A DNA stretch of 63,819 nt, the filler included, from Folioceros fuciformis (taxonomy: Eukaryota), in the NCBI GenBank assembly GCA_049999805.1. It is 8 parts of 8 records of this genome, joined end to end, with 100 filler letters (N's around TTAATTAATTAA, not from the genome) between each part and the next. Parts side by side here need not be neighbours in the genome. Positions count along the whole stretch, not along the records: positions 44,641 to 53,998 come from JBNGIO010003998.1; 7 more parts are not named here. One strand, 5' to 3'. The position numbers and the translations under genes are program-made. The notes under the pieces were generated by a model that saw only the letters and a program-made list of their open reading frames with translations, searched no databases and was not told the origin of the DNA. Below are positions 36,484 to 60,300 of the stretch, piece after piece. Numbering within the stretch: the stretch's first letter is position 1; every line of letters starts with the position of its first letter.

Positions 36484-36583
36484 NNNNNNNNNNNNNNNNN
36501 NNNNNNNNNNNNNNNNNNNNNNNNNNNTTAATTAATTAANNNNNNNNNNNNNNNNNNNNNNNNNNNNNNNNNNNNNNNNNNNN
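36484..36583. other. Artificial contig-joining spacer
   Basis: N44-TTAATTAATTAA-N44. Confidence 0.97.
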
Positions 36584-36896
36584 GGGGGGTAGCATATATA
36601 GAGACCTAAGGGGTCCCGGACCACCAAAGGCCAAGGACATACCCCACTCACCTAGCTACAGACCTCGTCCATAATGTTCTCAATGACACGAGGGCCAAGG
36701 AGGCACTCGCTCATTCCCCCTCCTTGTCCCTGTCTCCAGTACACCCTAAACCCCGAAGCCCAAGAGGGACTTTGGGCATAAACACCCTAGTCTTATTTAC
36801 CTACTAAGCCGATTCGCCTGTCCCTTCACAAAAAACATCACAACCTGCTCACTCCGTCGCTCAAAATGGGGGTTCCGAATTTTTTTTTCGTTCACA
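36584..36896 (-). mobile_element. Terminal fragment of a B-related subfamily
   Basis: Homologous to 1225-1474; ends TTTTTTTCGTTCACA (the same terminal octamer as copy C). Confidence 0.6.
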
Positions 36897-38103: not shown

Positions 38104-38126
38104 ATACCCTAGATAATCGAGCATAG

Positions 38127-39339
38127 TGTGGAGTGATTTCTTACACCCAAGAACCACCAAAGGGCCACACTTCCCCTTATTTTCGTTGTAGTCTTATGAT
38201 TCGCTCCCAAGGGAGTGAACTAGTGTCAAGGGTACCTACAATTTCCTACTCTCACCCTATTTATTAGCCGGTTCCTAACCCTGACCGTACTCCAACAAAA
38301 AGGTCAGAATCCTTAGCCTATCCTCAGCTCAGCCCACTAATTCCACACTCCAACACTTCAGTCCTTCAGCCCTTCATGTCTCCACTTCAGCCCATCACTT
38401 CACTTAAGTCACTCACCTTTTCACTTCACCTCACACTTCTGCACCCTAGCAGCTCACACTTCACTCTACCTCACTCCAACACCTCCACACTTCTCTTCAA
38501 CTCAACCCTAGAATTTGGGATACAACAGCCTTGCCTCTCGCAGTCTTCAAGCAAGGAGATGGGGACTAGGACTGGATAGCCCTCTTGGCTCACGGCCCTA
38601 TTACTTCACCTCAGCCGGCGTGCAAAATGATCAGCCGTTACGGATCCGGCCACACGGATCTCGGCAGTCTTGGGATCCACCACGTCCCCCTAGTGGCAAG
38701 GGGAATCAAGTCCTTGGTTCAATCTCAACCGGCTCATCACTCTAAGCCGGGAGTCTGCACACAAGGCCAGGGAAATCACACCGTAGACCACCCCTCCTCA
38801 ATGGCAGGTCTACCCTCTTATACTGCCTTCACCCAACCCTCCATCTTTGTCTACTAGGGTTAACCTCAATCAACCACCTAACAGTCTCTCTCTGACCTAA
38901 GCCGCACCAAATTCTAACCTACACCCAGTTCTGACCTAAACCTAATCTAAGTCTGACCTAAACCTAATCAGGTCTAAACCTAGTCCTAAGTTTGACCTAA
39001 ACCTAATCAGACCTAAACATAGTCAGACCTAGTTCTGACCCCAACCTAAACCAAGCCTAACTCTAACCTACCCCTATGCGTAATTGCCCGTTACCCCCTT
39101 AGACATCGCTGGTTGTCCTCTATCTAAAATTATCAGCCTCTCACAACTAGCAAAAATTAGGAGTGCTTCTCAACACCCTCCCCTCCTCTCTCGGATCAGA
39201 TCATCCCTTCCCCTCAGATCATCTTGCACCCTTCAGAGACCTCCATCTTCAGGTCCCTTCCCCCATTCTGCTGGCCAAGACCCATGACCCAGCAAAGCTA
39301 CCCATCTAGCGCCCCTGAATGAGCACCTTGCAAGCTTGG
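38127..39339. mobile_element. Terminal part of related element D, interrupted by the 39340 copy
   Basis: Starts TGTGGAGTG. It shares the subterminal motif TCGTT..AG..GATTCG.TCCCAAGGGARTGA..GTGTCAA with copy A (45735-45783). It is similar to 53120-53998 and contains CCTAAACCTAATC-type repeats at 38890-39070. Confidence 0.7.
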
Positions 39340-41794
39340 TGTAGAGGAAAAAAACTTTCGGGACTCCCATTTTGAAGAATAGAATGAATAGGTTGTGTTT
39401 TTTTTCGTGAAGATACGAATGGATCGGCTTAGTATGGAAATAATACTTGGGTATTTATACCCAAAAGGCTCCTTGGCCCTTGGTGATTTGATAGGATTGA
39501 GTGACAGGACCAAGGAGAAGTATGGGTGAGAGGGTGTCCTTGGCCCTTGGTAGTGCGGGGGCACTCAGTTGTCTATATATGTATCCACCCCCCCTGGAAA
39601 ATAAGAAACAGGAAATGGGGTAGGGGCTTAGGTAGTTGTGGACTTAGGCGAAAAACCGGAGTGTGATGACTGGGAGACGGTAGCCGATTGCGCGACCATC
39701 GTGGAAAGGAAACCGGCAGTAGCCCAACTGGCGGTAGTGGAACGAGAACGGCAGCATAAAACCCTAGGGTGAATCAGGGGAGGACCTGGGCANNNNNNNN
39801 NNNNNNNNNNNNNNNNNNNNNNNNNNNNNNNNNNNNNNNNNNNNNNNNNNNNNNNNNNNNNNNNNNNNNNNNNNNNNNNNNNNNNNNNNNNNGGGAGGAC
39901 CTGGGCAGTAATCGAGGCAGAAACTTTCGCGAGTTGGAGCAGGAGCGGGAGTAGCCGCGAAGTGCGACGATGGCCGGAGGGGAGCGGAAGCTTAGGCAGT
40001 ACAGCAGAGCGGGCGGAGAGCGCCGGCAACCACAGGCGCAGGAGGGCAGTAGGGTTCGGATTATGGGGAAGAATTAGGCAGGATGAGGTCACGGCCAGAG
40101 TTGCTACCGGGAGTAGCGGTACTTGAGCAGGAGGAGGGAGACTCCCCTATACCGAGGATTGACGTGCTCCTGTGGCCCAACATGGAGCACTGGAGGGTCA
40201 GAGCCGAAGGACTGGTCGGAGAACTAGGCCTCGGGTTCATGACCCAGAGCTGCAATCATGCGGCACCGCAGCTGGTTAGGGAGTGCGCCCTGAAAATGAG
40301 AGAGCCTGTCTGAGAAGAGGGAATCCACGGGAGACCCCAGGCATGGAACTTGGAGCTAGTAAGGCAAGTGTATGGCGGCGACCAGCAGGAGGAGGGGGGA
40401 CTGGTGCTGGAGTCCCTAAAGAAACGAGGTGGCACGGCAGAGGCCGAAGGGCTACTCAAACCAGGCACCAAGAAGGAAGCCAACGGGTGGCTGGTCCGCG
40501 ACATGGCCAACCCTCAACTGATGGGTCTGGCCAGGTGGTTCCTATGTTTCCTGCAGGTTTGCAAGCCGGATTATCTGTCCGACCAGATGCTCTTGTTTGT
40601 GTACGAGGTGGTCAAGGGGAGCAAGGTGGACTGGGGGAAAATCCTGTATGCCAGGATGGACGAGGAAAGGCAGAATCTAACCCTGTCCTCTCCCCGACCT
40701 TCAATGATTTCTCCCTTTCTAATTCATATCTACTGCTATGCTAATCTCGTGTCTGAGCTGGAAGTGCTCGCCTCACTGCACATGTGCAGACCAATAAGGG
40801 ATGTAAAGTAGAAGCCCGCCGAGCCAGCGGGAGCCACCTCTAGCAGCTAGGAGTCAGGCGATGCGGATAGCTCGGAGGAGGGGACCCCCGCTAGGCAGAA
40901 GAGAAAGGGTCAGGGAAAAAGGCTCCCTCTAAGAGGAGACGGGCCAGTGGTCAGATTGTCAGAAAAGGAAGCGGGTTGGTGTCATAGGAGGTAGGCCTGG
41001 AACGGGTTGAGGGGGAGGAGGGAGCTGTTCAAGAACCAGCAGACCAAGAGTCGGCAGAGCGGGAACCAAACGAAGAGGAACTAGAAGCAGATGCCAGCGA
41101 TGGAAGCGGCCCCTCCTGAGGAAAGGAGTGAATTAGGGCACGCTCCGGAGCAGGAAGCCCTCCTAGAATAGGAGGATGTTTTTAGGAAAATTCCTCAAGT
41201 GGATAGGTTGCAGGCAAGGGAGCTAGAGAAGATATGAGCGCTGCTGGGGAGGCAAATAACCAAGAGGGGAATGGCTCCTATGTGGTCGCAGGAGATGGAT
41301 CTGCCAGAACTAACCTCAGCCATGGTGCAGGCACAAGCGGACGTGTTGGACCAGGTGGCTAGGGCATTGACCTGGCTGAGCAAGCAGGCGGAGAAGGAGG
41401 CCGAGGCCCGAAGTGGGAAGGTAGAGGCAAGAGGAAAGGAGTCCAAAGCCTGGAGACAACTGGCGGAATCTGAAACGGCACGATGGCTCTTGGAAGAAGA
41501 GTGGCGGGTCCTGAGCGAGGGTAAGGCACAAGCAGAAGAAGAGGCACGCCAGGCCAAGGCAGAGATCCAAGCGCTAATGTAGCAACAGGAGTTGCTCCTA
41601 GCTCAAGTGAGGGTAGCCCATGAGACTAATTTAGAAATACAGCAGGAGGTGGCCAAGGCTCAGGAGCAGGAGATGGCTGCGATGGAACAAGCCCAGAAGC
41701 TGGAGGACAGGTACAAACGGGAGCGGGACGTGGCCAGAGAGCGAGTAAAAGGGAAGGGTAAGGCTGGGCGCAGTGGTCGGACGACGATGTCGGT
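39340..41794 (+). mobile_element. Another copy of the B family, cut by the contig end, with ORF1 (40083 onward, several stops)
   Basis: Begins TGTAGAGGAAAAAAACTTTCG and is collinear and highly similar to 46457-48700. ORF1 peptides: LVRECALKM, GRPQAWNLELVRQVYG, KKEANGW, GSKVDWGKILY, MISPFLIHIY, followed by an acidic region and a coiled coil. Confidence 0.85.
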
Positions 41795-41894
41795 NNNNNN
41801 NNNNNNNNNNNNNNNNNNNNNNNNNNNNNNNNNNNNNNTTAATTAATTAANNNNNNNNNNNNNNNNNNNNNNNNNNNNNNNNNNNNNNNNNNNN
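41795..41894. other. Artificial contig-joining spacer
   Basis: N44-TTAATTAATTAA-N44. Confidence 0.97.
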
Positions 41895-44540
41895 CGAGTG
41901 TGGCTGGATCCGTGAGCCAGCCACTGGCTTGGCTGCAGGTGACAAGCCGCCAGCTGGCTTCTGGGCAAGGAGTTCGGTAGGCAACCAGCCGGGCAGGCCG
42001 GGCAGGCTGGTTGCCTGGCTGGTTCTGGATCGGTTGGCGGCTCCAGGCCAATAGGCCCAGGGCAGGCAGAAGACAGCTAGGGTCCCGGCCAACCAAGCCA
42101 GGGGGAACGGGACGGACGGATGTGGAGGAGCTTGGCCGACAGCCACCCGACGGATGGCGTGGAGCAAGACTGGGGCCAGGATGGGCACCGGCTGCATGGA
42201 GCGAGTTCGACCGGGCAACTTGGTGGATCAGCTGGCTAGGGTTGGCGTCGGGCTGGCTGGCCAGGATCAGATCGGTAGGCCAGGCAAGGGGCTGGCGAGG
42301 ATGCTGGATCCAGTTGGGTCGTGGCCAGGCAGCTGGCAGTACGGAGTCTGGGCAGGTGGCTGGTGAAAGGATCGATAGAGAAGCATGGTGAAGGAGAGGA
42401 GAGAAGAAGAGAGGAGGAAGAGAGGTCTCACAGTGTCTCTCACAGCTCTATTGCAAAGGGAGCTCAAGAGGGTATTTATTCCCTCTAGAAAAGCTCCGAA
42501 GGAAGCTTCACAAGAAGCTCACAGGAAGGAAGCTTCACAAAACGCTCATAGGAAGCTTCACAAGAAGCTCACAAGAAGCTTCACAAGAAGCTCACAGGAA
42601 GGAAGCTTCACACGAAGCTCACAGGAAGCTATGCAGGAAGCTTCCTAAAGATTAGCTTAAGCTAATCTAAACTAATGATACTTAATTAGACACTAATCCT
42701 AGACTAATTACATTAGTCTAATTAAACTAATCACATTAGTTTAATTAGACTAATGTAATTAGTCTAATTAGACTAATCAAATTAGACTAATCACATTAGT
42801 CTAATTCGACTAATCACATTAGTTTAATTCGACTAATCATATTAGTCTAATTAGACTAATCATATTAGTCTAATTAGACTAATCATATTAGTCTAAGCAC
42901 ATTGGGCTTTAATAAACCTACAGCTGGGATAGTGTGAGAGTTGGCTAGACAGTGTGAGAGTTGGCTAGACAGTGTGANNNNNNNNNNTAGACAGTGTGAG
43001 AGTTGGCTAGACAGTGTGAGAGTTGGCTAGACAGGGGCTGGCTAGAGTTGGCTAGACAGGGGCTGGCTAGTGGGGGGTGTCGGCTGGAGGCCGGGTCGCC
43101 AAGGTGTTGTAGGTGGTCCAGCAGTGTGGACTACTGTAGCAGGCCGACCGGCTGAGGCGGATCCGAAGGCTAGGCAGGGCTACTGGGTCCTAGAAGGCGG
43201 GGGAGGTCCGAGCCGAGAACGCAGACAGGGCTGCCTAGCTGCTGAGGAACTTGGCCAGCAAATTGGGTAGGCCCAACTACAGGCAGGCAGCAAGCGGACC
43301 GTGGTCTGGCTGCCTGGCCTGACCCAGAAGGGAAATGGCAGACTGCTAGTCGCAGCTGGCTGGCAGGCAGCCAACACCGGATCCAGGCGAGCGTGCGGGC
43401 AGGTTGGCTGGATCCAGTCCCGATCAGTCGGAGGCCGGGTAGTTGGGGACAGTCGCGGATGATGGTTGTCCAGCCAGGACAGGGGAACAGGTCGATCGAA
43501 CGAGGAGGGAGCTTCAAGTGCCATTGCACCAAGCTAGCTGCAGCGGTGGGGGGCCGGATCAGTTGGACGACCGATGGCTCGGCGACAGCTGGGTCTGGAA
43601 GCCAACAGGAAGTTCATTCAAGTCCTGGCCGATCAGCCAACAGCGAACCGCTAGCAAATTGCGCTACGGGCGGGTAGCTCGGCAGCCCTGCATAGCAAGA
43701 AGCCAGTAAGGTGCATGGCAAACGGATCGAGATGTGTCGAAGTGGGTCGGTGGCGGGGCGCTCCGGCGGCCTGTGGTCAGCCGAGGTGGACCCAGCCGGC
43801 AACAGGTCGAGAGCAGGCTGTGGCTTACCGGCCGATGGTGGGCTGCGGGCTGGATCCAGCAGACCGACTGGCTGGGGGGATCCGGGGAGGAGACCCGGCT
43901 TGTCGATGGCGGCTGGGTCCAAGCAATCACCGGGCGATCTGATTGGGTTGCACAGGCCGCCGAGATGGATTAGGGCAGGTCGGCTACAGGCAAAGGGGAG
44001 GCTACAGGTCGTGGCGTGCCAGGCCGAAGCGGGCCGGGTTCAGCAGGAAGGCGGGCTAGAAGTATTCGGCGCTGGGCTGAGGTCCCGACGGGACCCAGGG
44101 TGAGCCAGCCTGGGGCTGGGCAAGGCGGGGAGCCGGGAGCAAGCCAGGGGTTCCTGGCTACTGAGGAGCTGGGCCGGCCCAGCTACAAGCATACCGTTTG
44201 GGGCTCAAAGGAGTAGCCAACCGGTAGGCTAGCCAGCCGATTTGGGGGAAACAATCGGGCTGTAGGCAGGCGGGCCAGTGGGCCGGCTATCTAAGCGGAC
44301 CAGGCATGGCGGCTGGCTAGGTCAGGCTGCTAGTAGGAAGGACCCTGGTTTGCCAGGGGAACTGGCGGAATGCATGGCAAGCTTTATCGGCGGTGAAGCG
44401 CCTGGCTTGCAGGAACTAGCCAGGGTGGACCCACGGTGGGACGCAGGGCGGTGTGGTCGGATCAGCAGACCCAGCTGCAGGCAACCAATAGCGATCGGAT
44501 GGCAGCTGGCCGAGCTGGATCCAGCTAGCCAGTCTGTGGG
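41895..44540. repeat. GC-rich, G-skewed degenerate repeat region hosting the solo LTR and a 20-bp tandem repeat
   Basis: Same motif vocabulary as 58400-60300. (AGTGTGAGAGTTGGCTAGAC)n lies at 42931-43060. Confidence 0.55.
42364..42922 (-). mobile_element. Solo LTR (559 bp) with a perfect 5-bp TSD
   Basis: TGAAAGG...CCTACA flanked by GCTGG at 42359-42363 and 42923-42927. Highly similar to the LTR at 21641-22072, whose adjacent PBS gives the orientation. Confidence 0.92.
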
Positions 44541-44640
44541 NNNNNNNNNNNNNNNNNNNNNNNNNNNNNNNNNNNNNNNNNNNNTTAATTAATTAANNNN
44601 NNNNNNNNNNNNNNNNNNNNNNNNNNNNNNNNNNNNNNNN
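44541..44640. other. Artificial contig-joining spacer
   Basis: N44-TTAATTAATTAA-N44. Confidence 0.97.
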
Positions 44641-45681
44641 ATTATACGCCTTAGAGCCATACATCTATTCCTATCCTTCCAGTACGTAGACTTATATTTT
44701 ATTCCGTTCAACGCAGCCTATTCTAGTAGGAGCAATAATTATTCAATATATGATGAAAGCAAATCCGTAAAGTATGCAAGGGCAGAAAACTCAAAAGAGT
44801 AGACTAGCCCCGCCATTGTTGAACTTGAAACATGAAGAGTACTATGAACATTAACTCTCAACGCATTTATCTTACAATCATTACTTAAGAAGAATAAAGA
44901 CTGTAAACTCATCTACCCTCAAAGAGGTGAGACGAACCACCAAAAGGTAACCCGGATAGTGAACTAGCCTCTAAAGTAATTGAACCACAAATAGCACCTA
45001 AGATATCATGGTCCTAAAGTCATTGAACCACAAAATAGCACCTAAGATATCATGGTCCAAAAGGAAGTAAAGATCTACCTACCTCTATGGTTGCTAACAC
45101 AAACTAGCCTCTCTTGCCATTGTCATCGTCCTGTACATAGCATAAGCCAACGCCATCCACACGGCAATAGGAATCCTTTGCCAAAAGAATGCTAAAATAC
45201 ACCAAAGAGGAAGACCCACCTCATTCTACCTATTGTGAATTGTCTTGCTATAAGTCTCCAAGTCTTGCTTAAAGTCCATTCACGTCTCTCACTCTCGCTA
45301 CAAAGGCCCTGTCCCTATTTGCGCTTGAGAGCACACAGGCCCCGCTTCCCTCCTCAACAAAGTCCCTTCCTCCTCCGACTCCTCCATCAAATCTTCAGGC
45401 ATGTAATTTGTATCCAGGATGTCATCCAGGTGGTCATCCTCGTCTTGCATACCAAGCGGGTCCTCCCCTTCCCTACCGCCGTCCCCGCCAAGCATGTCAT
45501 CCATGTTGTTCTCTATCTCCATTTCGCCGAGCATTTCGTCCTCCCACGCGACCATTCCTTATGCGTTCTCAGTCCACCCGCAAGGCATCTTTGTTCCAAT
45601 CGTTTTTGCGACCTCCTCATCCTCGCTGATCGTGATTGGGTCACAACACTGAAATCGTAAGCGAGTTACAGGGAATGTCCT

Positions 45682-46456
45682 TGTGGGAGAAAATATTGCA
45701 CCCGGGGGTGCTGCGAGGTCCACACAAACCCTCTTTGTCGTTATAGCATTGGGATTCGATCCAAAGGGAATGATTTGTGTCAAATAACACAAGTTTCTTC
45801 TAAAAGTCAGTTACTGCCTAAGTCAAGCCTTCCACTCACCTACCACCTATTCGGCTACCTCAACCTCACCACGACTCGACTACTACCGTCGCCCCCTCAA
45901 CTACCTTAACGCTGGGCTACTCGACGGCCTACTCAGTCACCGAGGTACGTACCTACGTCCCTCAACTACTTCGTCGTCCCTACGGCTACCGCGGCACTCG
46001 GCTACTTCCGTTGCCCCTTCCACGACGGTCGCCCAATCGGCTACCCTGGTGGGGTTTTCTCTCTCTCCCTTCACCCCCTCTCTCTTTACTCTCTCTCTCT
46101 CTCTCATTCACCCCATGACTTACTTTTCCGACTTATGCCTTCTGACAGGTGGGACCCGCTTCAGTCCTCCCTCTCCCTTTCGCGATCACTCCTCTAACAC
46201 AACTCACACCTTCACTCTCATTCACGATTGCTCACTGCTTTTCTCAGGACTCGAGGACGCTTGGTTTATACACACCTACAGTTACTAACGCTCAGCCTGC
46301 GTCCAGCCCTAGCTCCTTTCGTTTCCTCTAGAAATCCCTTATGCTTACTGCGCACAACGGTGCCCCCACACACGTGCACACATACACGGCTTCTCCATCA
46401 GCCAACGCACTCTCGTTCGCTATCACACCCTGCTCGCAACCTCAGGCCAGACTCTT
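45682..46456 (-). mobile_element. Left part of an inverted sister copy (copy A), interrupted by copy B
   Basis: Starts TGTGGGAGAAAATATTG and is the diverged reverse complement of about 50350-50997. Confidence 0.75.
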
Positions 46457-49400
46457 TATAGAGGAAAAAAACTTTCGAGACTCCTATTTTGAAGAGCAGA
46501 ATGAACAGGTAGTGCTTTTTTTTTTGTAAAGATGCGAGTGAAACGGCTTAGTATGGAAATAATACTTGGGTATTTATACCCAAAAGGCTCCTTGGCCCTT
46601 GGTGATTTGATAGGATTGAGTGATAGGACAAAGGAGAAGTGTGGGCGAGGTTGTCCTTGGCCCTTGGTATTGCGGGGGCACTTAGGTGTCTATATATGTA
46701 CACCCCCCCCCTAGAAAATAAGAAATAGGAAATTGGGTAGGGGCTTAGGAGGTTGTGGACTTAGGCGAAAAACCGGAGTGTGATGACTGGGCGACGGTAG
46801 CCGGTTGGGCGATCGTCATGGAAGGGAACCGGCGGTACTGGAACTCAAACGGCAGCATAAAACCCTAGAGTGAATCAAGGGAGGACCTGGGCAGTAATTG
46901 AGGCAGAAACGTCCACGGGTTGGAGCAGGAGCGGGAGTAGCCGCAAAGCGCGACGACGGCCGGAGGGGAGCGGAAGCTTAGGCAGTATAGTAGAGCGGGC
47001 GGAGAGCGCCGGCGACCACAGGCGCAGGAGGACAGCAGGGTTTGGAGTACGGGGAAGAATCAGGCAGGATGAGGTCACGGCCAAAGTTGCTACCATGAGT
47101 AATGGTACCTGAGCAGAAGGGAGACTCCCTTGTACCGAGGATTGATGTGCTCTTGTAAAAAACATGGAGCACAAGAGGGTCAAAGCCGGAGGACTGGTCG
47201 GAGAACTAGGCCTCAGGTTCATGACCCAGAGGTGGAATCATGGGGGCCGCAGCTGGTTAGGGAGTGCGCCCTGAAAATGAGAGAGCCCGTCCAAGAAGAG
47301 GGAATCCACGGCAAACCCCAGGCATGGAACTTGGAGCTGGTAAGGCAAGTGTATGGCTGCGACTAGCAGGAGGAGGTGCATGGCGGAGGCCGAAGGGCTA
47401 CTCAAACCAGGCACCAAGAAGGAAGCCAACGGGTGGCTGCCTATGTTTCCTGCAAGTTTGCAAGCAAGATTATCTATCTGACTAGATGCTCCTGTTTGTG
47501 CACGAGGTGGTTAAGGGGAGCAAGGTGGACTGAGGGAAAATCCTGTACGCCAGGATGGACGAGAAAAGGCAGAATCTAACCCTCTCCTCTCCCCGACCTT
47601 CAATGATTTCTCCCTTTCTAATTCATATCTACTGCTATGTTAATCTCGTGTCTGAGCTGGAGGTGCTCGCCTCACTGCACATGTGGAGGCCAATAAGAGA
47701 TGTAAAGTGGAAGCCCGATCAGCCAGCGGAAGCCGACTCCAGCAGCTAGGAGTCAGGCGGTGCGGATAGTTCGGAGGAGGAGACCCCCGCCAGGTAGAAG
47801 AGAAAGGCAGGGTCAAGGGAAAAGGCTCCCGCCAAGAAGAGACGGGCCAGTGCTCAGATTGTTAGAAAAGAAAGCGGGTCGGAGTCATAGGAGGTAGTCC
47901 TGGAACGGGCTGAGGGGGAGCAGGGAGCTGTTCCAGAACCAGCAGACCAAGAACCGGTAGAGCAGGAACCGAACGAAGAGGAACTAGAAGCACCCTAGGA
48001 GAAGATGCCAGCGATGGAAGTGGCCCCTCCTGAGGAGAGGAGTGAATTAGGGCACGTTCCGGAGCAAGAAGTCTTCCCAGAATGGGAAGATGTTTTTAGA
48101 AAAATTCCTCAGGTGGATAGGTTGCACGTAGAGGAGCTGGAGAAGTTACGAACGCTACTAGGGAGGCAGATAACCAAGAGGGGAATGGCTCCTATGGGGG
48201 CGCAGGAGGTGGATCTGCTAGGACTAACCTCAGCCATGGTGCAGGCACAAGCGGACGTGTTGGACCAGGTGGCTAGGGCATTGATTTGGCTGAGTAGGCA
48301 GGCGGAGAAGGAGGCCGAGGCCCGAAGTAGGGAGGCAGAGGCAAGAGGAAAGGAGTCCAAAGCCTAGAGACAGCTGGCGGAGTCTGAAACGGCACGACGG
48401 CTCCTGGAAGAAGAGCAACGGGTCCTAAGCGAGGGCAAGGCACAAGCAGAAGAAGAGGCGCTAATGGAGCAATAGGAGTCGCTCCTAGCTCAGGTGAGGG
48501 TAGACCTTGAGACTAATTTGGAAATACAGCAAGAGATGGCTAAGGCTCAGGAGCACGAGATGGCTAAGGCTCAGGAGCAGGAGATAGCTGCGATGGAACA
48601 AGCCCAGAAGCTGGCGGACAGGTACAAACGGGAGTGGGACAAGGCCAGAGAGCGAGTAAAAGGGAAGGGCAAGGCTAGGCGCAGTGGTCGGACGACGACG
48701 CTGGTGGCTGAAAGGGCTACCGGTGGTCCAGCTCCAAAACCGATAGACGATGGGGCTACTGGTAGTCGAGTTCTAGAACCGGTAGCCCCGGAGGAGCTAC
48801 CGGTAGTCTCGCGACGCCCAAGGTAGTTGAAGGGGCTACCGGTGGGGGAGGAACGACGCCGGTAGCTGAAGCCATGACCCCGGTAGCCGAAGCACTAAGG
48901 GCAGAGGCGCCCGAGGTAGCCCAAGGAAGGAAGGGGTAAGCACCTCCCTTATGACAGAGGGTCAGGTTATGCTGCAATATGAGGAGGAGGCCTGTTATGT
49001 GCCAGGCCTTTATGTGGAGGGAGCCCAAGTTCTGAAGCTGTTTTTGTATGTACGTATGGGCATAGGAGGGACGCAGGCCTACGGCCTACAACTGAAGACC
49101 CGCACGTGCAGCTACTACTACCGATGGCGGGTATGGGGGCTGCCTCATTGCTATTCCGAGGTAGTCTTGGAGGAACTGACGGAGGAGGAGGCATAGCAAT
49201 GGGTTGAACGGGAGCCTGTCCTCATCCTCAGTAATCGGCGATGGAAAGAGGAGAGGGACTTCTTGCAACGGGACCCACCTGCGCCGCCGCTAGCGAGGGC
49301 CAACAGCAGCATCAGTGAGGTGGAGGTCCTGTGGGAGGACCTGCCTAACCAGTGGCGGGATAGGAGGGCTAGAGGCAGACCAGTAGGGGGAGGAGCGCGA

Positions 49401-50997
49401 CGACCAGGAAGAAGGCGCCAGCAGCAAAGAGGGAGGCGATAGTAATTACAATCTAGACTAGTTTTGTTTTTAGATTGTTTTTGCTTGGACCTAAGCCGCT
49501 CAAAATTTAAGAGCGCTGACTGACCCCTGACAGACTTTATGGTAGAAAGACCGCCACTACCGTGTACAAGAGGCCAGTTTGAGGCCTTGGAAAAATCAAC
49601 AAGAAACCAGCCCGACATTCCGACCTTGTGGAAGCCTAGCGATGGCCATTGCTGAACAGGAGGTCTAGGCAAGTGAGCGCACACAGTGTTTTGAGGGTGT
49701 GGGTGCAGGTGGTGGATGCTCTGTAATCGGAAACCGGGAACGAATCGGGAGCACAGACCTCACCGAGTGGGAGACGAACTCCCCAGCTATTCCTATGACG
49801 GTTGCGTGGAGTGGTAAAGGTGCTGGTTGCCGAATCCGCGAGTCCGGAGTGGAGGTGGATACCCCTTCGCTTAGCCTCCAGTGACCCACCATTCCTTCAA
49901 TTTCAGAGGGAAGAGAGGCCCTGGACAGGCGAGGTGGAGGAGAATGTCGAGAGTCATGAGTGGGTTGAAAAATGAGAGGGTGTGTGTAAGAGCGTTGATG
50001 AATGTATGTTGGTGGAGAAGTAATACGGGTCAGAGTGATTGATGTTGCGAAAGTGGTGAGTGGCTGTGGGTCACGAGGGTGGCGGTGTTAGAAGGAAGAG
50101 GTTGTGTGATTGAATAACTGTGGTGACTGTGTGTGTGTAAGCTTGGGGTGTGGCGAAGGTTGAGCTGAGGAGTTGATCAGCAGGTATGTGGCGCTGTGAC
50201 GAGGTGGTCGTGGTTGACAAGAAAGTGCACGGAGTAAAAGGGTGTGACGAAAGTGAGATGTGCTTATGCGCTAAGACAGAATATCGTGAGGTAAAGAGAT
50301 GACTGTATTTGTGTGAGATTGAGGCGAGAGGACGCGCGAGTAGGTGTGTGAGATCGGTTGAGGATGGGAGTAGAGTATGGCAGTGGACGAGAGTGCGCTG
50401 ACTGATTAGGAGCCGTATATGAACGTGAACGAGTATATGAACTAAACGCCTTCGATTTCAGAGAGACAATGCGTAGACGTGAGTGGTCGGAAGGGCGTGT
50501 GTTGTGAGGGGAGGACATTCACCACCAAGGGAGGTAGAACGTGATTGTCAGGAGGCATAAGTCAAAAAAGTAAGCCGTGGGGTAAATTAGAGCGGGAGCA
50601 AGAGGAGAGAGAGAGAGAGACGGGGTGTGAGTTAGAGAGAGTGTGTGGACCCCACTGAGGTAGCCGGTTGGGCGACCATTGCCAAGAGGGAAACGGAAGT
50701 AGCTGAGCGCAGTAGTAGCTGTAGGGGCGACAGAGTAGCTGGGCCGGTCGCAAGGTAGCCCGATAATAAGGTAGTTGAGGAGGCGACGGTGGTAGCTTCG
50801 TCGCGGTCAGGTCGAGGCAGCTAGGTAATTGATAGCCGTAACTATACGAGACGGATCTGGAGTAGTAATTGACTTTGTGAGACAACCTGTGTTATTTAAC
50901 ACAAATCATTCCCTTGGGATCGAATCCCACTGCTATAACGACAAAGAGGGTTTGTGTAAACCTCGCAGCACCCCAGAGTACAATATTTTCCCCCACA
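46457..50997 (+). mobile_element. 4.54-kb TG..CA unit (giant solo-LTR-like) carrying two decayed non-gag/pol ORFs (copy B)
   Basis: Left end TATAGAGGAAAAAAAC (TGTAGAGG in the sister copy at 39340); right end TATTTTCCCCCACA. The two ends form an imperfect inverted repeat. Flanks are CTCTT (46452-46456) and CTCTC (50998-51002), a 5-bp TSD with 1 mismatch. The sequences on either side join into one inverted copy of the same family. ORF1 lies at about 47069-48950 and ORF2 at 48951-49442. Confidence 0.8.
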
Positions 50998-52331
50998 CTC
51001 TCACAACTACTCACGCACCCTTGTCCCTCTGGCTCACGCACATACAGTCATCTCTCCCTTCACGGCATTTCGTCTCCGAACATAGTCACATCCAGCTTTC
51101 GCCACACTCGTCACTCCGATTACTCTCTGGTCAGCCACGATCACCTCACCACAGCACCACACACCCACCATTCGAGCTCCACCACCCCTCAGCTTAGCTT
51201 CCTACACACCCCAAGCTCACACACAGTTGCCACAGTCATTCAGTCACACAACTTCTTCCTTCTACCATCGCCACTCTCGCGACCCACGTCCACTCACGGT
51301 CTTCACAACGTCAGTCACTCAGCACCGCATTCTTTCTTCACCAACACGCATTCATCAGCGCTCTTACTCACATACTCTTATTTCTCAGTCCAGCCACAAC
51401 TCTCAACACTCTTCTCCAACTCACCCGTCTAGGGCCCCTCTCTCTTCTGAAATGGTAAGGATGGTGGGTCACTAGAGGCTAAGGGAAGGGGTATCCACTT
51501 CCACTCTAGACTCACGGATTCGGCCTCCGGCACCTTTACCACCCCACGCAACCGACACGGGAATAGCTGGGGAGCGCGTCTCCCACTCGGCGAGGTCTCT
51601 TCTCCCGATTCGTCCTCGGGTCCTAGTTACGGAGCATCCACCACTTGCACCCGCACCCTTAGAGCACTACGTGCGCTCGCTTGCCTGAACCTCCTGTCCA
51701 GCAACGGCCATCACTAGGCTTCCACAAGGTCGGAGTGTCTGGCTGGTTTCTTGTAGATTTTTCCGAGGCGTCAAACTGGCCTCTTCTACANNNNNNNNNN
51801 NNNNNNNNNNNNNNNNNNNNNNNNNNNNNNNNNNNNNNNNNNNNNNNNNNNNNNNNNNNNNNNNNNNNNNNNNNNNNNNNNNNNNNNNNNGGCCTCTTCT
51901 ACATGGTAGTGGCGATCTTTCCGCCATAAAGTCTGTTAGGGGTCAGTTAGCGCTCTTAAATTCTGAGCGGCTTAGGTCCAAGCAAAAACAATCTAAAAAA
52001 GCTAGTCTAGACTGTAATTACTATTGCCTTCCTCTTTGCCGCTGGCGCCTTCCTCCTGGCCGTCGCGCTCCTCCCCCTACGGGTCCGCCGCTGGTCAGGC
52101 AGGTCCTCCCACAGGACCTCCACCTCACTGCTGCTAGTGCTGGCCCTCGCTGGCGGCGGTGCAGGTGGGTCTCGTTGCAGGAAATCCCTTTCCTCTCTCC
52201 GTCGCCGATTCCTGAGAATGAGGACAGGCTCCCGTTCAACCCACCGTTGCGCCTCCTTCTCCGTTAGTTCCTCCAGGATTGCCTAAGAATAGCAATGAGG
52301 CAGCCCCCATACCTGCCAGCGGTAGAAGTAG
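50998..52331 (-). mobile_element. Continuation of copy A, including most of ORF2 on the minus strand; truncated
   Basis: Reverse-complement homolog of about 49110-50350, picking up where 45682-46456 stops. Encodes WGLPHCYS*AILEELTEKEAQRWVEREPVLIL..RDFLQRDPPAP..EVEVLWEDLPDQ. Confidence 0.78.
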
Positions 52332-53119
52332 ATGCCCCTGCGGATCTTCAGTTGTGTGGATGGAGTGTTGAACATGCCCCGTAAGCGTTTTGTTGGCAAC
52401 TCTTGTCCTTCCTTGGAATACGTGTTGGGCGCTGCGGCACATCTCATATTCTATGTGCAAGGAGTACAATGTTCAGTTAAACTGGGCAAATGCAATGCAG
52501 CAGAGCATTGCAAAGGGGAGCGAAGGGCCATTACTAGTCCCCTATACAAGTTGTCCTATCTTTCCACATGATGTAGAGTGATGACCGCTTGAAGAGGCCT
52601 GGGCGCATGCTCGCAATCAGAACAAGGGCACCATATTTTTGGGATGCACGCATTCCAAGTAGGAGCATCCATGGCTGGATTGAAGCAAAACTATTGAAAT
52701 CCCAACGCATTTGGAGGATTCCCATATGCTCAGGAGCATTCCCGCTAACGCTGGGCAGGTACGCTTGGAAGTAGAGCGTTCGGCTTCAGGTGGAGGTTAC
52801 ACTCCAACGGGGTGACGCCCCACAATGGGGATAAATGCTTGCATTCCTGCAAGATGTCACTTACAATGGGCGAACACACATGCAAGGTCGAGCGAGGCGA
52901 ATTTCAGTGGGTGCCTCTGCATTGTGGTGTTCGGACGAGCGGGAGGATGGATGCACCAGCGTCCTCAAAGTACGATTCATGCTCGAACTACAGTGGCCAT
53001 TTTGGTGGGGGAGAAAGTGGTAGTGCAGAAGATGGAGCGCAAACAATGCCAAATGCAATTGAAGGCGAGTCCTCGGAGCAGGCCAGGTTGCACAGGCTCA
53101 TTGAGAATAAGAAAGACCT

Positions 53120-53998
53120 TGTGGAGTGGTTTCATGCACCCAAGAACCACCAAAGGGCCTCACTTCCCCTTATTGTCGTTGCAGTCTTCTGATTCGCTCC
53201 CAAGGGAGTGAACTAGTGTCAAAGAACACTTACAGCTATCTACTCACACTTCTACCTATCAGCCGGTCTATAGGACTGACCACACACACACAACAAAGAG
53301 GCCAGAAGCTTAGCCTATCTTCAAATCAGCTCACACAACTCACACTCCAGATCTTCAGTCCTTCAGCTCTTCATGATTCTCACTTCAGTCTTTCCTTCTT
53401 CACTTCATCCCTTCACCCTTCACTTCAGCACACACTCTTCACTTCTATGCACTTCACTCCAACTCTTCCTCTCTTTGCTTCAGCTATCCACTAGAAATTG
53501 GAACACGACGACTTCACTCCTTGCAGCCTTCAAGCGTAGTGTGGATACTATGACTAGATAGCCCTCCTGGCTCACGGTGCTGTCACTTCACTTCAGCCAG
53601 CCTGCGAATCATTCAGCCCTTGCGGATCCGACCACACGGATCTTGGCAATCTTGGGATCCTCCACTTTCCCCTAGTGGCAAGGGAAACAGGACCTTGGTT
53701 CAGTCTCAACCGGCTCAGCGCTCTAAACTAGGAGTTTTGCCCATAAGGTCCAGGACAATCGCACCGTAGACAGCCCTCTCAATGGCAGGTTTTCCCCTTC
53801 TTGTACTACCTAGCCCTCCACCTCTGTCTACTAGGGTTAACCTCAGTTACCTACCTAACCATCTCTCTCTGACGTAAACCATTCTACACCCAGTTCTGAT
53901 CTAAACCTGACCTAAGTCTGACCTAAACCTAATCTAACGTAGGTCTAACCTAGACCTAACCCGACCTAGGTCTGGCCTAGACCTAACCCGACCTAGGT
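53120..53998. mobile_element. Second copy of the element D terminus, cut by the contig end
   Basis: Starts TGTGGAGTG and is collinear with 38127-39050. Confidence 0.72.
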
Positions 53999-54098
53999 NN
54001 NNNNNNNNNNNNNNNNNNNNNNNNNNNNNNNNNNNNNNNNNNTTAATTAATTAANNNNNNNNNNNNNNNNNNNNNNNNNNNNNNNNNNNNNNNNNNNN
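53999..54098. other. Artificial contig-joining spacer
   Basis: N44-TTAATTAATTAA-N44. Confidence 0.97.
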
Positions 54099-54963
54099 AG
54101 CCAAGGTTGCTCCTCCTGCACACAATTGTCAAAAATAATAATAAAAAAATGTTGAGGAAATTATGACAACAATTCCTAAATTCCTAATTCCTGGAAAATG
54201 CCTTCTTAAGGGCGATCTGACAGGGTGAATAGATCTGCAAATGACAGAGACAGGCGTTAGTCTACTCCCAGAGATCTCGAGGAAGATGGCGGCCCTATCT
54301 ACACCCCCACAGATCTAGGACGAGAAGAGCATCAAGAAATTGCAACATTATTTCCAAACAATTCTCCAAGATTACCTGAGATTCTTAGAGCATACATAGT
54401 ACTAAGTGACAGACTTGCTAGCATAGAAGAAATCCTGCTGAGACTCCTTGCTAGACAAGACAGGGTTTGAATGCGGCACAATTGTACATACAAGTCACCG
54501 ACAGGATAGATTCTTTTTCAACAAAAACCAACGGACGACTAGAAATGCTCACCCAAGAGCTCTCTCATTAGTTGGAAGTTGTATGCAGTTTGAATCGTCG
54601 AGCCACAATAATCTCTGCCGTGCAACCTGCTGTCGCATTGTATTTGCCTACTCTGCTTCCTAATCCTGCGAGGCAGGACGCAGAAAAGTGATCAATTTTT
54701 TGCAGCAGGAGCCAATGGCGGCCCAAATGCCAAGCATCGTGGTCAGTGGCTGTTTGCAAGAAGAGGTGCCTCCAGGCAATGCACCTTTCCTGCTCCCGTG
54801 ACACTTCGCCAACATCAACCGTCACATGGTTGGTTAGTTAGGCTTTCTTTCAAAACTCATGAATAGAAAACTAACAACTAGAGCAACGTTTCATACTTAC
54901 CGTTTTGTTTTGACTTGAACAGTATCATCTAGAATGCCTGTAAGCTAGTTCCGTTGTTGGCTC

Positions 54964-56148
54964 TTGTCCACACGCATGACAGACAGTTCTTCTACGTCTC
55001 ACGAGGATGGTTATACCTTGTCCCTCAATAGCTCTAGCTCAGAAACAAATCTTCAGGATCCTCTTGTTGATCTCCTTGCGCAGCAATTTAACACACTTAG
55101 TATAGTGCCCATTCCTTTTCAAACGATGGGAACTATTCCACCACTTAACACACTCAGTATAGTGCCCATTCCTTTTCAAACGATGGGAACTATCCCACCT
55201 CCTCCTCCTCCTCCTCCTCCTTCTGGCTACAATAGCCCAACCTTCACATCTGAATTGAAAGAAAAAGACAGGTTCAATGGGCATAAGTATGAAGTCTGGA
55301 GAGTTAGAATGAAATCTACATTGCTAGCCAGAGGTGTTTGGGGCATAGTGGATGGCTCTATCCTTGAACCTGATCCCTCTAAGACTAAGGGAGAGAAGGA
55401 TAGATGGGCTCATGCCAATGGTATATCCATTGCGCTCCTAGTAGGTGGTCTTATAGAAAACATGATTCCTGCAATTGAGTATCTCACAAAAGCAAGTGAG
55501 ATATGGAAACAACTGTCCAACCAATACGAAGTAAGAAATGTTCTTACCTTATGCGCACTAATACAGGAATTCTATGGACTGAAAATGAGGGAAGGAGATA
55601 AGGTACTTGCTCACACCAGCAAGCTCCGACATCTCCATGCACAGCTAGTTGCTGTTGGAACTGTAATGGACGAAGTTGACGACATTGCACAGCTCCTGAC
55701 AAGTCTTCCTCCTAGTTATCAGAATTTTGTCTCTGCGCATAATGTCCCCATCCGGCAAGCTCAGGCTGCTGGTAAAACTTCAACTCTCACCTTAGACGAG
55801 GTGATTGGTGCCCTGTTCCAGGAAGAGCAGTGCGGACTCATGTCAGGGTCTGGGTCCAAGTCCAAAGCTGACAAAGTACTTATTGCTTTCCATGGTAGAC
55901 CAGGGCAGAGGGGCAAGCCAAGGACAACACCTCACAATCAAAGCTCTTGAAATGATGCAGGATCCTCTAATTCCAATTCAACCAAGTGTACAGGTACGTG
56001 TAATTGGTGTGGCATCCCTGGCCATTGGGCTCATGATTGTCGAAAGAAGAAAGCTGTCGAGCCTCAAAGACCTCCCAGATATGCAGCCAGAGCAACTGTT
56101 AAAGACAAAATTGGTGATACGAGTAAGCCAGTAGTCAAGATTCTTACA
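54964..56148 (+). mobile_element. Ty1/copia gag remnant
   Basis: FNGHKYEVWRVRMKSTLLARGVWGIVDGSILEP, ASEIWKQLSNQYE, LKMREGD, LLTSLPPSY and the zinc knuckle CNWCGIPGHWAHDC after an in-frame TGA at 55948. A 57-bp tandem duplication lies at 55088-55201. Confidence 0.9.
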
Positions 56149-56369: not shown

Positions 56370-57734
56370 AAGGCCTCTATGGAGGCGTTGAGCTCCCCAC
56401 GGGGGGGCTCCACAGTTGGCACATGGGCGGCTGTGGTCGGTTTGTGTGCAAGTAAACAGAACGCGAGGGGATTTAACGCGGTGGGGAAGGTTTCTAATTC
56501 ATCTGATGCTAGCCGAACAAAAGCCATGGCAGAGAATGAAGCTCAGGTACAGACGGTTGAGGTGGATTATACTTGTGAACAGGCACAGGCAAGCGCTTCC
56601 CAAGAATATGCCTCGGTTTCAGCAAAAGAGGGTCCAGGTCTTCAGTTGGGCCCTTTGGCGGATGTTCTTATAGAAGCGCGGTACTTTCAGCAGGAGGAAT
56701 ACAAGCTCATTGCCAGCTCTGTTGTGGGGCGGCTNNNNNNNNNNNNNNNNNNNNNNNNNNNNNNNNNNNNNNNNNNNNNNNNNNNNNNNNNNNNNNNNNN
56801 NNNNNNNNNNNNNNNNNNNNNNNNNNNNNNNNNNGCCCCCCCATAGTGGAGGAGTTGGAGATTTGGGCAACTCAAGTATCCAGGTGCCCTCCAGCTTATG
56901 TTTTCCTGACGGCTGACGGTTCTTTTCAGATCAAATGTGACAAGGCAGCCGGCGCGCAGGCAATCTTACACACAACCCTGCCATTTCAAGGCTCCATCCC
57001 GGTGCTGGTGGAAGCTTGGTCTCCAGGGAACACAATTATGCAGTCGAAAATCAAAAGGCAGTTTCTTTGGGTGGGGCTTCCTGCTCTGCCCGTGTAACTC
57101 ATCCCGATGATACGAAAGATCTTGGGGACTATAGGCCGAGTGGTGGAGGTTCCCAAGGTGGATTCGCATTTCTTTGACAGCCACAAGCCCCCTCGCTTTG
57201 GCGTTAGGGTTGATAGCCTCCTCGCCTTGCTTGAAGGAGTCATCATTCGTGATCCGGAAGACCCATCTGGATGCTTTACCCAGCTTTTCGACTACCCGGA
57301 TTTGCCTGTTAGGTGCGGAGTCTGTGGGCTGAAAAGCCACCTTAAGCAGGCTTGTCCTCTTCGTGCTTGTGTTGGCAGTGGAGGAGACAAAGCTGAGAAG
57401 GCCCATCTAGGTCCACTGCTTGGCTTTAAAGGAGTGCTTAGGAAAACGTGGAGGTCCAACCCAAAAACGCAGCAGTGGGCCAACCAGATTCAGAAACTCT
57501 TCTTCTCGGGTACTGAGGCTGCAACCAACACGCACATCAAAATTTGCATGCTCATGAGGAGGAAGGTGGGCAAAGATTTCTTTTATTGGCTACCAAAGGT
57601 GGGCGATCTTAGAGCCCTGCCTATGCGCTCCCTCCAGTCTGGGACCGCAATGGGGCATCGGCTTCCTGCATTCTGGGATAATGTTAAGCTTAGAACTCGG
57701 GATATGCTACAGGTGGGTTTGGGTTTAGACAAAC
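56370..57734 (+). mobile_element. Second copy of the same LINE ORF1, truncated by a TGTGGAG insertion at 57735
   Basis: Collinear with the reverse complement of 24833-26105; contains CGVCGLKSHLKQAC and has TGG where copy 1 has TAG. Confidence 0.82.
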
Positions 57735-60300
57735 TGTGGAGTCCATATGGCGAACAGACCCCCGGGAAATGGCAGAGTTTGTTTTTTTGGGTTTCTGATT
57801 GAATTTCGTAGAGGATTGGTTAGAAGATTAGGTTAGATTAGAGGTTAGATTAACGGTGAGTCGATAGGGGTTTGGTGGGATGTGTGGTAGGTAGGCCACG
57901 GGTCTAGGTCCCCTTGGCGAGGGTGTTCAGATGTGTGTGTGAAGTCCTAGATATGTGAGTAGGAGGCGAGTGGGGTTTCATGGAGCAGGCAGTCAGTGCA
58001 CGAGGATGGCTAGTCGGAACACAGCGGACTGATGAGCAGCATGGCAGAACAGTAGCGCTGCTATATCCGTATGGGTGGGGGGATCCGAGTTACGATCCTC
58101 TATAGCCGGCCATCTGAAAGGTAGTAGCCCTCAACTGTGGCTTCTACGTCAACTCAACTCGTGCCTGCTGGAGGCCGGAAGTCACATTGTGGGCATGTGC
58201 AGAGAGACTGTGTCGCTCCCCCAACGGGAAGCCGTGGTGAAGGGAGGGTAGAACTCTAGAGACGAAAGGACGTTGGAGCGATCCCAGGCAGAGACCGAGC
58301 TGGCATCCCTGGATGAGAGGCCGCCAATGTGGGGGCAGTTGGTGCTCCAGGTGTGCAGGGCTCCTGGCCTGTTACCAGAGTTGAGCGGGGCGGGGCATGC
58401 TCGCGGATCCGGGGAGGCCTGGCTGATCGGTTGGCCGGGCCGGTGGTAGCGAATCAGGGTTGAATCCAGGCTAGGCGTGGATCCAGGCTGGGAAGGCTGG
58501 CAGACTAGCTGCAATGGGATCCAGCTGGACAGTTAGCTTGGCCACCTGGCTGTTAGGCAGATCCGACCAGTCAGCCAGGCAGCACCGCCTGGCCGAGGGA
58601 AAGATTGTTGGCGACGGGAAGGCCGGCCAGTCAGCATGTAGGCAGCGGCCCAGGGCCGGTCGGGCTGGCAAGCGGATCCGGCTAGCAGCAGACAAGCAGC
58701 CTAGCCGTGGCGGAAGCCAGGCTGGACGAGACCTAGCTGATCCGGAGGAGGGCCGGGTTAGCAGCGTCCCAGCTGCTGAGGGCGGGTAGGCACCTAGCAG
58801 CCCGGACACTCGGTGGTGGGTGCCTGGCTGGATCGCTAGACAGCCGCCTAGCGGGTGGCGGGATCCGGCAGGGCTAGGCTGAAGCAGGTCGGCGGAGCAG
58901 TTTGGCCTGGCAGCTCGACCAGCCGGGCTGGCCGGCCGGTCATGGCTGGAGGTGGCAGCTGAGAAGCTTGGACCAGCAGGCGGCTAGCCAGAGCGAGATC
59001 CAGGCCAGGCCCGGCTGCTGGAGATCAGGTAGGCTAGCTGGCGATGGCAGCTGCAGGCAGGCATTAAGCAGCCAGCGTGCCTGCTGATGGCAGGTGACCC
59101 TGTAGGTAGACAGCCGGCAGTGGCTAGTGAGGTTGGTGGCTGGAGGATTCAACGGGCTAACGAGCCGGATTTGGAGGCCAGCAGCGGCCTAGCTGCTTGT
59201 GGCTGGTCGGGGTGGATCCGGGTAGCAAGGTCGACTGGTTGGACCCTGGCCAGTCAGCGACCTGGCTGAATCGGGGCATGGCAGGCCAAGAAGGCTGGCG
59301 GCTGGTAGGCAGGGGGGTGGCCGACATGCGGGCAAGAGCATGGAAGGTAGGTAGGCCAGGGCGGATACAAGTAGCCGGGAGGGATCTGAGGCAGGCGGGC
59401 GGGTGCCAGGATCAGGGCCCGGGCGAATCAGGTGGACTAGATCCAAGTGGTTGGTTGGCTGCCAGGCGAGTAGGCAAGCGGCCTAGCCTAATCGCCAAGG
59501 TAGGCGAACCCAGGCAGGCAGGTGGCCTGGTCGGATCGCCTAGGCAAGCGGGCTGGCCGGATCGTCATGGCAGGGCTGGATCCCGAAGTCAGGCAGCCAC
59601 CTGGTGGCTGGCTGGGGAGAGTCCGGGCCAGGGGGGAAGGAAGGATGGTTGGCAGGGGGTGCTCATGGATGGCCGACCCAAGTAGGTAGCTCGGTTGGCG
59701 GCTTGGCGGGCTGGCAGGCCGGATCGAAACCGTTGCAGGGGATGCGCAACCTGGTAGCTGGCTGGATCACGACCAGGCCAATCCGGCAGGGAGCATGGCG
59801 CTACCTGGCGACACGGATAGGCTGACGAAACCCGGCAGGCAGGAGGTCGGCTAGCAGGCGAGTTGCCCGCAAAATCCAGGCAAGTAGGTGGAGCCAAGAC
59901 GTGCAGAATCGTGCTTAACGGGATTGAGGTAGGCAAGAGGCAAGTTGGGGCGGTCGAGTCCTCCAAGCAGATCAGAGGTGGGCACTAGCGTCTAGGCGCC
60001 TGGCGCTCCAAGCAAGCAAGTGCCAGGGTCAGTCTAGCAGGTCGGCGGGTGGTAGAGACTCTAAGTCTTGCCTGGATTGCATTCGGCAGGTTGGACCATG
60101 GTGGTTGGTTGGCCGGATCTGGCCATGCCCCTAGCAAGCGAGGCACAAGCGGGCCTCGGGCTGATCCAAGCGATGATGGCTGGCAGGTGAGTCTATGGTG
60201 GATCAAGGAAGGTGGACTGGCCAGATGAGTAAGGGCCAGGCACGAGATCCAAGCAAGTGGCCCTTTCTCAAGGGGCTAAGCCAAGCGGGGCAGTTCGGAG
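57735..60300. repeat. GC-rich, G-skewed degenerate repeat region starting with a TGTGGAG terminus; probable mobile element
   Basis: LINE homology stops exactly at TGTGGAGTCC. The region is dense in GGCTGG, GGCAGG, GGATCC and GCTAG motifs and has no credible ORF. Confidence 0.5.

Follow-up and report, generated by a model that had tools for sequence, protein, structure and literature searches.

The window analysed here is a stretch of 63,819 nucleotides from Folioceros fuciformis (GenBank assembly GCA_049999805.1), made up of eight parts of eight records joined end to end by 100 filler letters, along the whole of which positions are counted. Within the part taken from JBNGIO010003998.1 (44641–53998) there is a discrete insertion at 46457–50997, referred to below as the unit or, among its relatives, as copy B. 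It has the ends of an integrase-inserted element and carries a TATA box, a long decayed open reading frame (ORF1), a shorter open stretch (ORF2) and a non-coding 3' region (Table 1). The balance of the evidence tips towards the unit being the solo long terminal repeat (LTR) of a family with very long LTRs, in which a cassette of the accessory-ORF type lies within the LTR.

The 5' terminus at 46457 is TATAGAGGAAAAAA, separated by a single transition from TGTAGAGGAAAAAA, which is present exactly at 1461–1474 (−), 38090–38103 (−) and 39340–39353 (+), with different flanks at each; a fifth and more diverged 5' end is at 36896 (−). Copy B starts with TA where copies A, E and G have TG at the same position. 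The 3' terminus, ATATTTTCCCCCACA at 50983–50997, recurs at 45682 (−). Of the 14 bases in the reverse complement of 50984–50997, 11 agree with the 5' end, and the flanking CTCTT and CTCTC are read directly from the sequence, as the original prediction had it for both the T(G>A) start with its short imperfect inverted repeat and the flanks. The unit has the TG..CA termini with short terminal inverted repeat, and the target-site duplication (TSD) of 4–6 bp, by which LTRs are recognized. Such termini, when combined with a TSD of 5 bp, are an established mark of integration of the retroviral type.

The boundaries are fixed independently by the site into which the unit has inserted. The unit splits an older, inverted, related copy, C (45682–46456 and 50998–52355), which aligns with unit positions 2632–4541 at 85%, 78% and 71% identity in successive blocks. 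That removal of the unit rejoins an inverted sister copy had been foreseen, with an end at 52331, where the alignment extends to 52355. The unit itself provides a paralogous empty site, in which the target GAGA is found once, where the rejoined host copy reads GAGAG/AAGAG. In public sequencing runs of the same organism, one contig in run X1 and one in run X2 join 46450 to 50997. These contigs skip 4546 bases, which is 4541 + 5, with five letters that fit on either side, and what is missing from them is therefore the unit plus one 5-bp duplication. One further contig in each of runs X1, X2 and X3 joins 46455 to 51039. Both junctions of the unit are inside the N-free stretch 44641–51790. The insertion is thus confirmed, along with its exact ends and its 5-bp TSD.

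The unit is a member of a large, high-copy family of graded age. In run X1, 2507 contigs match the stretch, 206 of them at an identity of at least 99%, 409 at 95–99%, 971 at 90–95% and 921 below 90%. Transitions dominate the differences among copies, which is expected for methylated repeats. Of its relatives in the window, E, F and G have only the first 120–317 bp in common with the unit, while X and X' have only the last ~100 bp in common with it. The ORF1 segment is absent from both G, of which 1474 bp are visible, and E, of which 1207 bp are visible. The TATA box of the 5' module, predicted at about 46689, is present at unit position 235 and is the only match to TATA(A/T)A(A/T) on the + strand of the unit. 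The 3' module is found in 4 of 4 copies, and 25 contigs in run X1 and 19 in run X2 begin their match at 50884. The 5' module and the 3' module bear no relation to one another. It is the ends, then, that are conserved as modules, and the middle that varies between subfamilies.

Table 1. The unit, its parts and its relatives, with positions along the window
Feature	Position	Strand	Remarks
Unit (copy B)	46457–50997	+	4541-bp discrete insertion; TA(<TG)..CA ends
TSD, left copy	46452–46456		CTCTT
TSD, right copy	50998–51002		CTCTC
5' module	46457–46773	+	common to copies A, E, F and G; 70–86% identity; includes the 14-nt inverted-repeat end
TATA box, TCTATATATG	46689–46698	+	invariant in 5/5 aligned 5' modules
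ORF1, N-terminal part	46994–47746	+	decayed; domain homologous to the P0001 family
ORF1, linker	47747–47998	+	acidic and basic, KKRR-type stretch; two in-frame stops in common with copy A
ORF1, C-terminal part	47999–48826	+	coiled-coil rich, decayed; stops at 48365 and 48473
GCTACC/GGTAGC array (GCTACCGGTAGC-like)	48716–48920	+	hexamers often as the palindrome GCTACCGGTAGC
ORF2	48951–49445	+	164 codons; one in-frame stop, at 49194
Non-coding 3' region	49446–50883	+	common to copies C and D
3' terminal module	50884–50997	+	common to C, X and X'
Host copy C, 3' part	45682–46456	−	aligns to unit 3897–4541
Host copy C, 5' part	50998–52355	−	aligns to unit 2632–3896; N gap at 51791–51890
Copy A	39340–41794	+	unit 1–2242; 90.7% identical in aligned columns
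Copy D	61946–62878	+	unit 2546–3440; 73–79% identity
Copy E	36897–38103	−	same 5' module, different body
Copy F	36584–36896	−	same 5' module, different body
Copy G	1–1474	−	only the 5' module (unit 3–317) and a GGTAGC-motif stretch in common; no ORF1 segment
Copy X	38127–39339	−	related unit; 3' end ..CTCCACA at 38127
Copy X'	53121–53998		sister of X

The window contains 22 runs of N (for example 36484–36583, 41795–41894 and 53999–54098), many of which are linkers of 44 N, TTAATTAATTAA and 44 N; adjacency across these is unreliable, as it is downstream of copy A past 41794. Copy A is itself cut by N gaps at 39793–39892 and from 41795. Copies A and B do not form the LTR pair of one element, as B is flanked directly by the two halves of C in a contig free of N, and A is only 90.7% identical to B. 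A candidate further 3' end at 20399–20413 was rejected, the 3' module being missing there. Between the 3' end of X (..CTCCACA) and the 5' end of E (TGTAGAGG..), on the same strand, there are only 23 bp (38104–38126). The two units are otherwise unrelated, and this spacing could be due to tandem insertion or to targeting of LTR ends.

ORF1 can be read only across frameshifts and stops, and its N-terminal part in copy B is interrupted by stops, two 1-nt indels and, relative to copy A, deletions of 35 and 47 nt. The frame is clearer in copy A, where the 580 codons of ~40053–41792 include 8 stops, compared with 31 and 19 when either of the other frames is read. A phmmer search with a 165-residue open piece of A (40314–40808) against 1.84 billion proteins gave one true match, P0001 (E 6e-4, 33% identity over 150 residues); a second, P0002, is a TIG-repeat protein and was set aside as spurious. 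P0001 has 13 relatives, all unnamed and all from short metagenome contigs. When the resulting 14-member family was compared with the window ORF by hhalign, the match had a probability of 97.2% and an E value of 2.8e-11 over 134 columns. The relatives have an N-terminal domain, an acidic stretch, KKRK and a long coiled coil, in the same order as ORF1, and with the significant profile match this places ORF1 in the P0001 family. The decayed ORF of roughly 600 codons that had been proposed does, then, derive from a real protein; the most complete relative, L001, has ~628 codons and one stop.

What kind of protein this was is indicated by weaker signals. Pieces of ORF1 matched no Pfam family above its cut-off, PF20167 reaching 12.3 bits (E 0.16) where 45 are required, and a weak PF20167 signal is seen in 1 of the 14 members of the P0001 family (E 0.023). 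Atlas scores for PF20167, PF03078 (Athila ORF1) and the PMD clusters are 0.78–0.80 and serve as leads only; the Atlas neighbours of ORF1 are all from Streptophyta. An AlphaFold2 model of the L001 ORF from a 20-row alignment had a mean predicted local distance difference test score (pLDDT) of 47.8, too poor for a fold search, and all that can be said from it is that the protein is predicted to be all-helical with a long coiled coil. A profile search of PDB sequences gave 0 matches. Searches with the window ORF and the L001 ORF found no longer homologous proteins and no fused gag-pol form, which is weak evidence. The conclusion drawn from these comparisons is that ORF1 is the relic of a retrotransposon protein of the accessory-ORF type, of an unnamed family.

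In a distant plant source, three independent copies of the ORF1 family (L001, L006 and L007) have a sharp common boundary, starting TGTCGCGG.., with unrelated flanks, one of which is a jacalin-lectin gene. This TG boundary sits 233 bp upstream of the start codon of the ORF1-family gene. In L001 the interval from the TG boundary to the start codon is a 230-bp AT-rich leader (523–752), bracketed by the inverted repeat TGTCGCGGCCCGCT .. AGCGGGCCGCAACC. The gag and aspartyl protease on the opposite strand of L005 are not taken as linked to the ORF1 family, since the ORF1 homology ends at 407 and a nested insertion is indicated.

The in-frame stops that A and B have in common, at 47747 (A 40848) and 47888 (A 40985), mean that both copies descend from a master in which ORF1 was already interrupted. 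In aligned codons A and B differ at 151 sites, 49/46/56 by codon position 1/2/3, and the ratio of nonsynonymous to synonymous change (dN/dS) is 0.45 in the ORF1 frame, with 0.57 and 0.74 for the two wrong frames; the even spread and the closeness to the wrong-frame values show no clear constraint and look neutral. For most copy-specific stops, the other copy has a sense codon one transition away, which fits decay after insertion. ORF1 is dead in copies A and B, and the original prediction of a unit with ORFs of its own is not supported if these are taken as working genes. In run X4, presumed to be RNA, 5 contigs match the stretch, all at less than 90% identity, and these are uninformative on expression.

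An open stretch of about 160 codons does exist at ORF2, as had been predicted. As a gene it has no support, since its start is not kept in C or D, its differences from C fall 11/15/16 by codon position, and its pieces match no Pfam family above cut-off. At 48716–48920 the hexamers GCTACC and GGTAGC are clustered, with smaller clusters at unit 340–633 (from 46796) and unit 4203–4335 (50659–50791); the unit has 12 of them, where shuffled sequence would be expected to have 2.5 and had 8 at most. Copies C and G have motifs of this style too. The clusters may be a binding site or an array of hairpins. A stretch of G (369–470) resembles the array just after ORF1 in B (unit 2238–2417), but the matches are short and motif-rich and this is suggestive only.

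The features that would be expected inside a complete element were sought. When 700 bp from each end were compared with the remainder of the unit in a sensitive self-comparison, terminal direct repeats were absent, the sole match being 62 nt at 69% identity (E 4e-4) within the motif array. In a six-frame motif scan of the whole window there were no signatures of reverse transcriptase (RT), RNase H, protease or integrase, and the only matches were zinc knuckles from other elements. This agrees with what had been predicted for internal direct repeats, RT, integrase and transposase, and the unit is likewise free of gag and pol. There is no tRNA in the window and no Rfam family, hammerhead ribozymes included, in 36500–54000. 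The unit was considered as a large retrotransposon derivative (LARD), a terminal-repeat retrotransposon in miniature (TRIM) or a retrozyme, and rejected as each of these, there being neither two terminal direct repeats nor an Rfam family there.

A solo LTR is favoured because a stand-alone unit with no internal repeats and an intact TSD is the product of LTR–LTR recombination, and because related LTR families typically have conserved ends and a middle that varies. Indeed, a 5' module with an invariant TATA box and a 3' module present in every copy are what would be expected if the ends of an LTR were retained for their roles in promotion and integration. The starting point would have been a full-length LTR retrotransposon, from a high-copy family with LTRs of ~4.5 kb, that its integrase inserted into the older related LTR copy C, producing the 5-bp duplication. 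Unequal recombination between its LTRs would then have deleted the internal region, leaving one LTR with the duplication intact. Such an LTR would consist of a 5' promoter module, with the TATA box ~235 bp in, a subfamily-specific cassette, and a 3' module of ~115 bp. The cassette would hold ORF1, with its TE-typical (transposable element) N-terminal domain, basic linker and long coiled coil. This cassette would be cargo absorbed by the LTR, interrupted before A and B split and decaying neutrally since. The original prediction had left a choice between a solo LTR and a new class of integrase-mobilised element; the former fits best, and the latter is without positive evidence.

Several points weigh against a solo LTR. 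No full-length element with two such LTRs has been seen, all DNA evidence being drawn from the window and the contigs of the public runs, and within the window none of the five 5' ends and none of the four 3' ends adjoins a common internal sequence, a TGG-type primer-binding site (PBS) or a polypurine tract (PPT). In run X2, 16 contigs continue past 50997, with an agreement of only 0.39 and no common continuation. These nine termini without internal neighbours, and the diverse continuations, are compatible with many solo LTRs and with unitigs that break at repeat ends, but would also fit the bolder option of the original prediction. A TATA box 235 bp from the 5' end implies an R-U5 of ~4.3 kb, which is atypical, and there is no AATAAA on either strand of the unit. 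Since TG/CA ends are symmetric, the unit could be read as an LTR in either orientation; were it reversed, ORF1 would be antisense, by analogy with the accessory ORFs of Retand. Finally, the layout of the distant relatives suggests that a TG terminus followed by ORF1 may be ancestral rather than accidental cargo.

The next reading keeps the solo LTR but has ORF1 work in active master copies, transcribed from the TATA promoter of the LTR itself, so that every LTR, solo ones included, could serve to express an accessory protein. The invariant TATA box is upstream of ORF1 and on the same strand, the frame of copy A has far fewer stops than its alternatives, the protein layout is conserved with distant relatives, and those in the other plant source are also 233 bp behind a TG terminus. 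Against this, the stops common to A and B mean that the family kept spreading after ORF1 was interrupted, there is no third-position excess among the differences, the cassette is absent from the sister families E and G, and no intact copy has been seen. A working ORF1 is on this evidence improbable, though not extremely so. A little less probable again is that the ORF1 family marks a lineage of plant mobile units, with integrase-type ends, a TATA box of their own and an accessory-type gene near the 5' terminus and no RT or integrase, whether these are LTRs acting as genes or LTR-less parasites of an integrase. If it were so, the TG terminus and ORF1 of L001, L006 and L007 would be the ancestral design.

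It is considerably less likely that the unit is a complete, stand-alone, non-autonomous element without LTRs, moved in trans by a retroviral-type integrase and representing a new class. The gene-like order of promoter, ORF and tail would suit such an element, as would the 11/14 terminal inverted repeat, the diverse continuations past 50997, the lack of any terminus in the window that adjoins an internal region, and the start of the ORF1-family unit in the other plant source with TG close to the ORF. RNA made from the TATA box would, however, lack the first ~260 bp, for which there is no known means of restoration in the absence of terminal repeats. A DDE gene or integrase motif of the Ginger/TDD type is absent from the window. 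Solo LTRs commonly outnumber intact elements, so nine lone termini are weak evidence, and unitig assemblies break at repeat ends. The unit is unusual, but a new element class is not supported.

An ordinary element, internally deleted or chimeric, in which short LTRs surround a remnant and ORF1 is gag-like or a remnant accessory ORF, is very improbable. Proteins of the ORF1 type are described from internal regions in PMC7264820, PMC11728184 and PMC11963269, but the comparison of the 700-bp ends yielded nothing beyond the one match in the motif array, the 5' and 3' modules are unrelated, and the unit does not resolve into short LTRs. The least likely of all is a false repeat join in a gap-rich scaffold, as the many N runs and linkers of the window might suggest, since both junctions lie in N-free sequence and neither a TSD nor exact empty-site joints of 4546 bases are expected from a misjoin.

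Other elements and genes are present in the window. At 32982–33974 (+), in an island of 61% GC, there is an intronless ORF with two NPA motifs (HVNPAVT and SLNPARS), which from its translation is presumably an aquaporin (MIP/TIP-like) gene of the host, beside the nest of TEs. A copia-type gag (PF14223, E 7e-28) is found at 54949–55950 (+), followed by a CCHC zinc knuckle at 55999 with pol motifs absent thereafter; it is the only one of 10 large ORFs in the window with a Pfam match. The sequences at 21644–22073 and 42366–42923 are direct copies, 20.7 kb apart and 80–91% identical, each ending in an array of a 23-bp near-palindromic unit (ATTAGACTAATCACATTAGTCTA-like). A large element enclosing the nest may have these as its two LTRs, or they may be a dispersed minisatellite. 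An inverted pair of 901 bp, 80% identical, at 24831–25731 and 56835–57735, has a zinc-knuckle ORF (CGVCGLKSHLKQxC) in each arm and is two inverted copies of another gag-bearing element, the long ORFs of which are without a Pfam match. The inverted arms of ~720 bp at 11781–12499 and 16544–17268, ~76% identical and 4 kb apart, are either a foldback-like structure or two inverted repeat copies. In run X3, C>T differences number 347 and G>A 161, a roughly twofold imbalance that sets it apart from X1 and X2; its library may have been converted or damaged.

Among plant LTR retrotransposons accessory ORFs are widespread, of unknown function, and invariably depicted as internal. An LTR carrying such an ORF would be proof that genes can be engulfed within LTR boundaries, would double the gene dose per element, and would leave thousands of solo-LTR relics made up of a promoter and an ORF. 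This would bear on how accessory genes are gained and lost, and also on annotation, in which such LTRs could be entered as genes or as TE families in their own right. As ORF1 is dead here, the immediate value is descriptive, in an unnamed family of TE proteins and a test case for the evolution of LTR boundaries.

The internal placement of plant accessory ORFs, given in the original prediction as the normal state, is borne out by PMC7264820, PMC11963269 and PMC11728184. The 3' accessory ORF of sunflower Athila is reported to have similarity to PF20167 and a nuclear localization signal (NLS) (PMC11728184), and the antisense accessory ORF of Retand to have matches to Transposase_28 and to a coiled coil, a layout of domain plus coiled coil (PMC11963269). 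ORF1 resembles the plant Ty3/gypsy accessory ORFs in its TE-specific N-terminal domain, basic NLS-like stretch and long coiled coil, and differs in position, theirs being internal (in the stretch that separates LTR from gag, or pol from LTR) and ORF1 being within a unit bounded by integration ends. The weak PF20167 signal and the restriction to Streptophyta, the latter a lead from the Atlas, are further likenesses, although the Pfam score of ORF1 is far below the cut-off. Full-text literature searches, which did not extend to supplements and subscription journals, turned up no plant study that describes ORFs within an LTR, a soft absence; the original prediction, too, knew of none. Mouse mammary tumour virus (MMTV) and other retroviral cases did come up.

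The unit resembles the Ginger2/TDD DNA transposons, which have integrase-like DDE transposases, in its TG-type termini and in short TSDs left by an enzyme related to integrases. Ginger2/TDD transposons have no known occurrence in plants. They have longer terminal inverted repeats and a DDE transposase, their own or that of a parental element, and the unit has neither. In MMTV the sag gene is a functional ORF inside an animal retroviral LTR, in U3 and upstream of the promoter. As in the reading favoured for the unit, coding sequence lies within an LTR and is hence duplicated at both ends of the provirus; unlike sag, ORF1 is downstream of the only TATA box and is decayed.

The closest likeness is to the very long LTRs known from plant Ty3/gypsy elements, those of Ogre being ~5 kb and those of LARD/Sukkula ~4.5 kb. 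Solo LTRs of these have, like the unit, TG..CA ends and a 5-bp TSD, are several kb long, stand alone with the TSD intact and in high copy number, and are nested in LTR copies. The unit departs from them in that its conserved TATA box is near the 5' end and no full-length partner element has been seen. The LTRs of Ogre and LARD/Sukkula are also described as non-coding, whereas the unit carries the relic of an accessory gene of ~600 codons.

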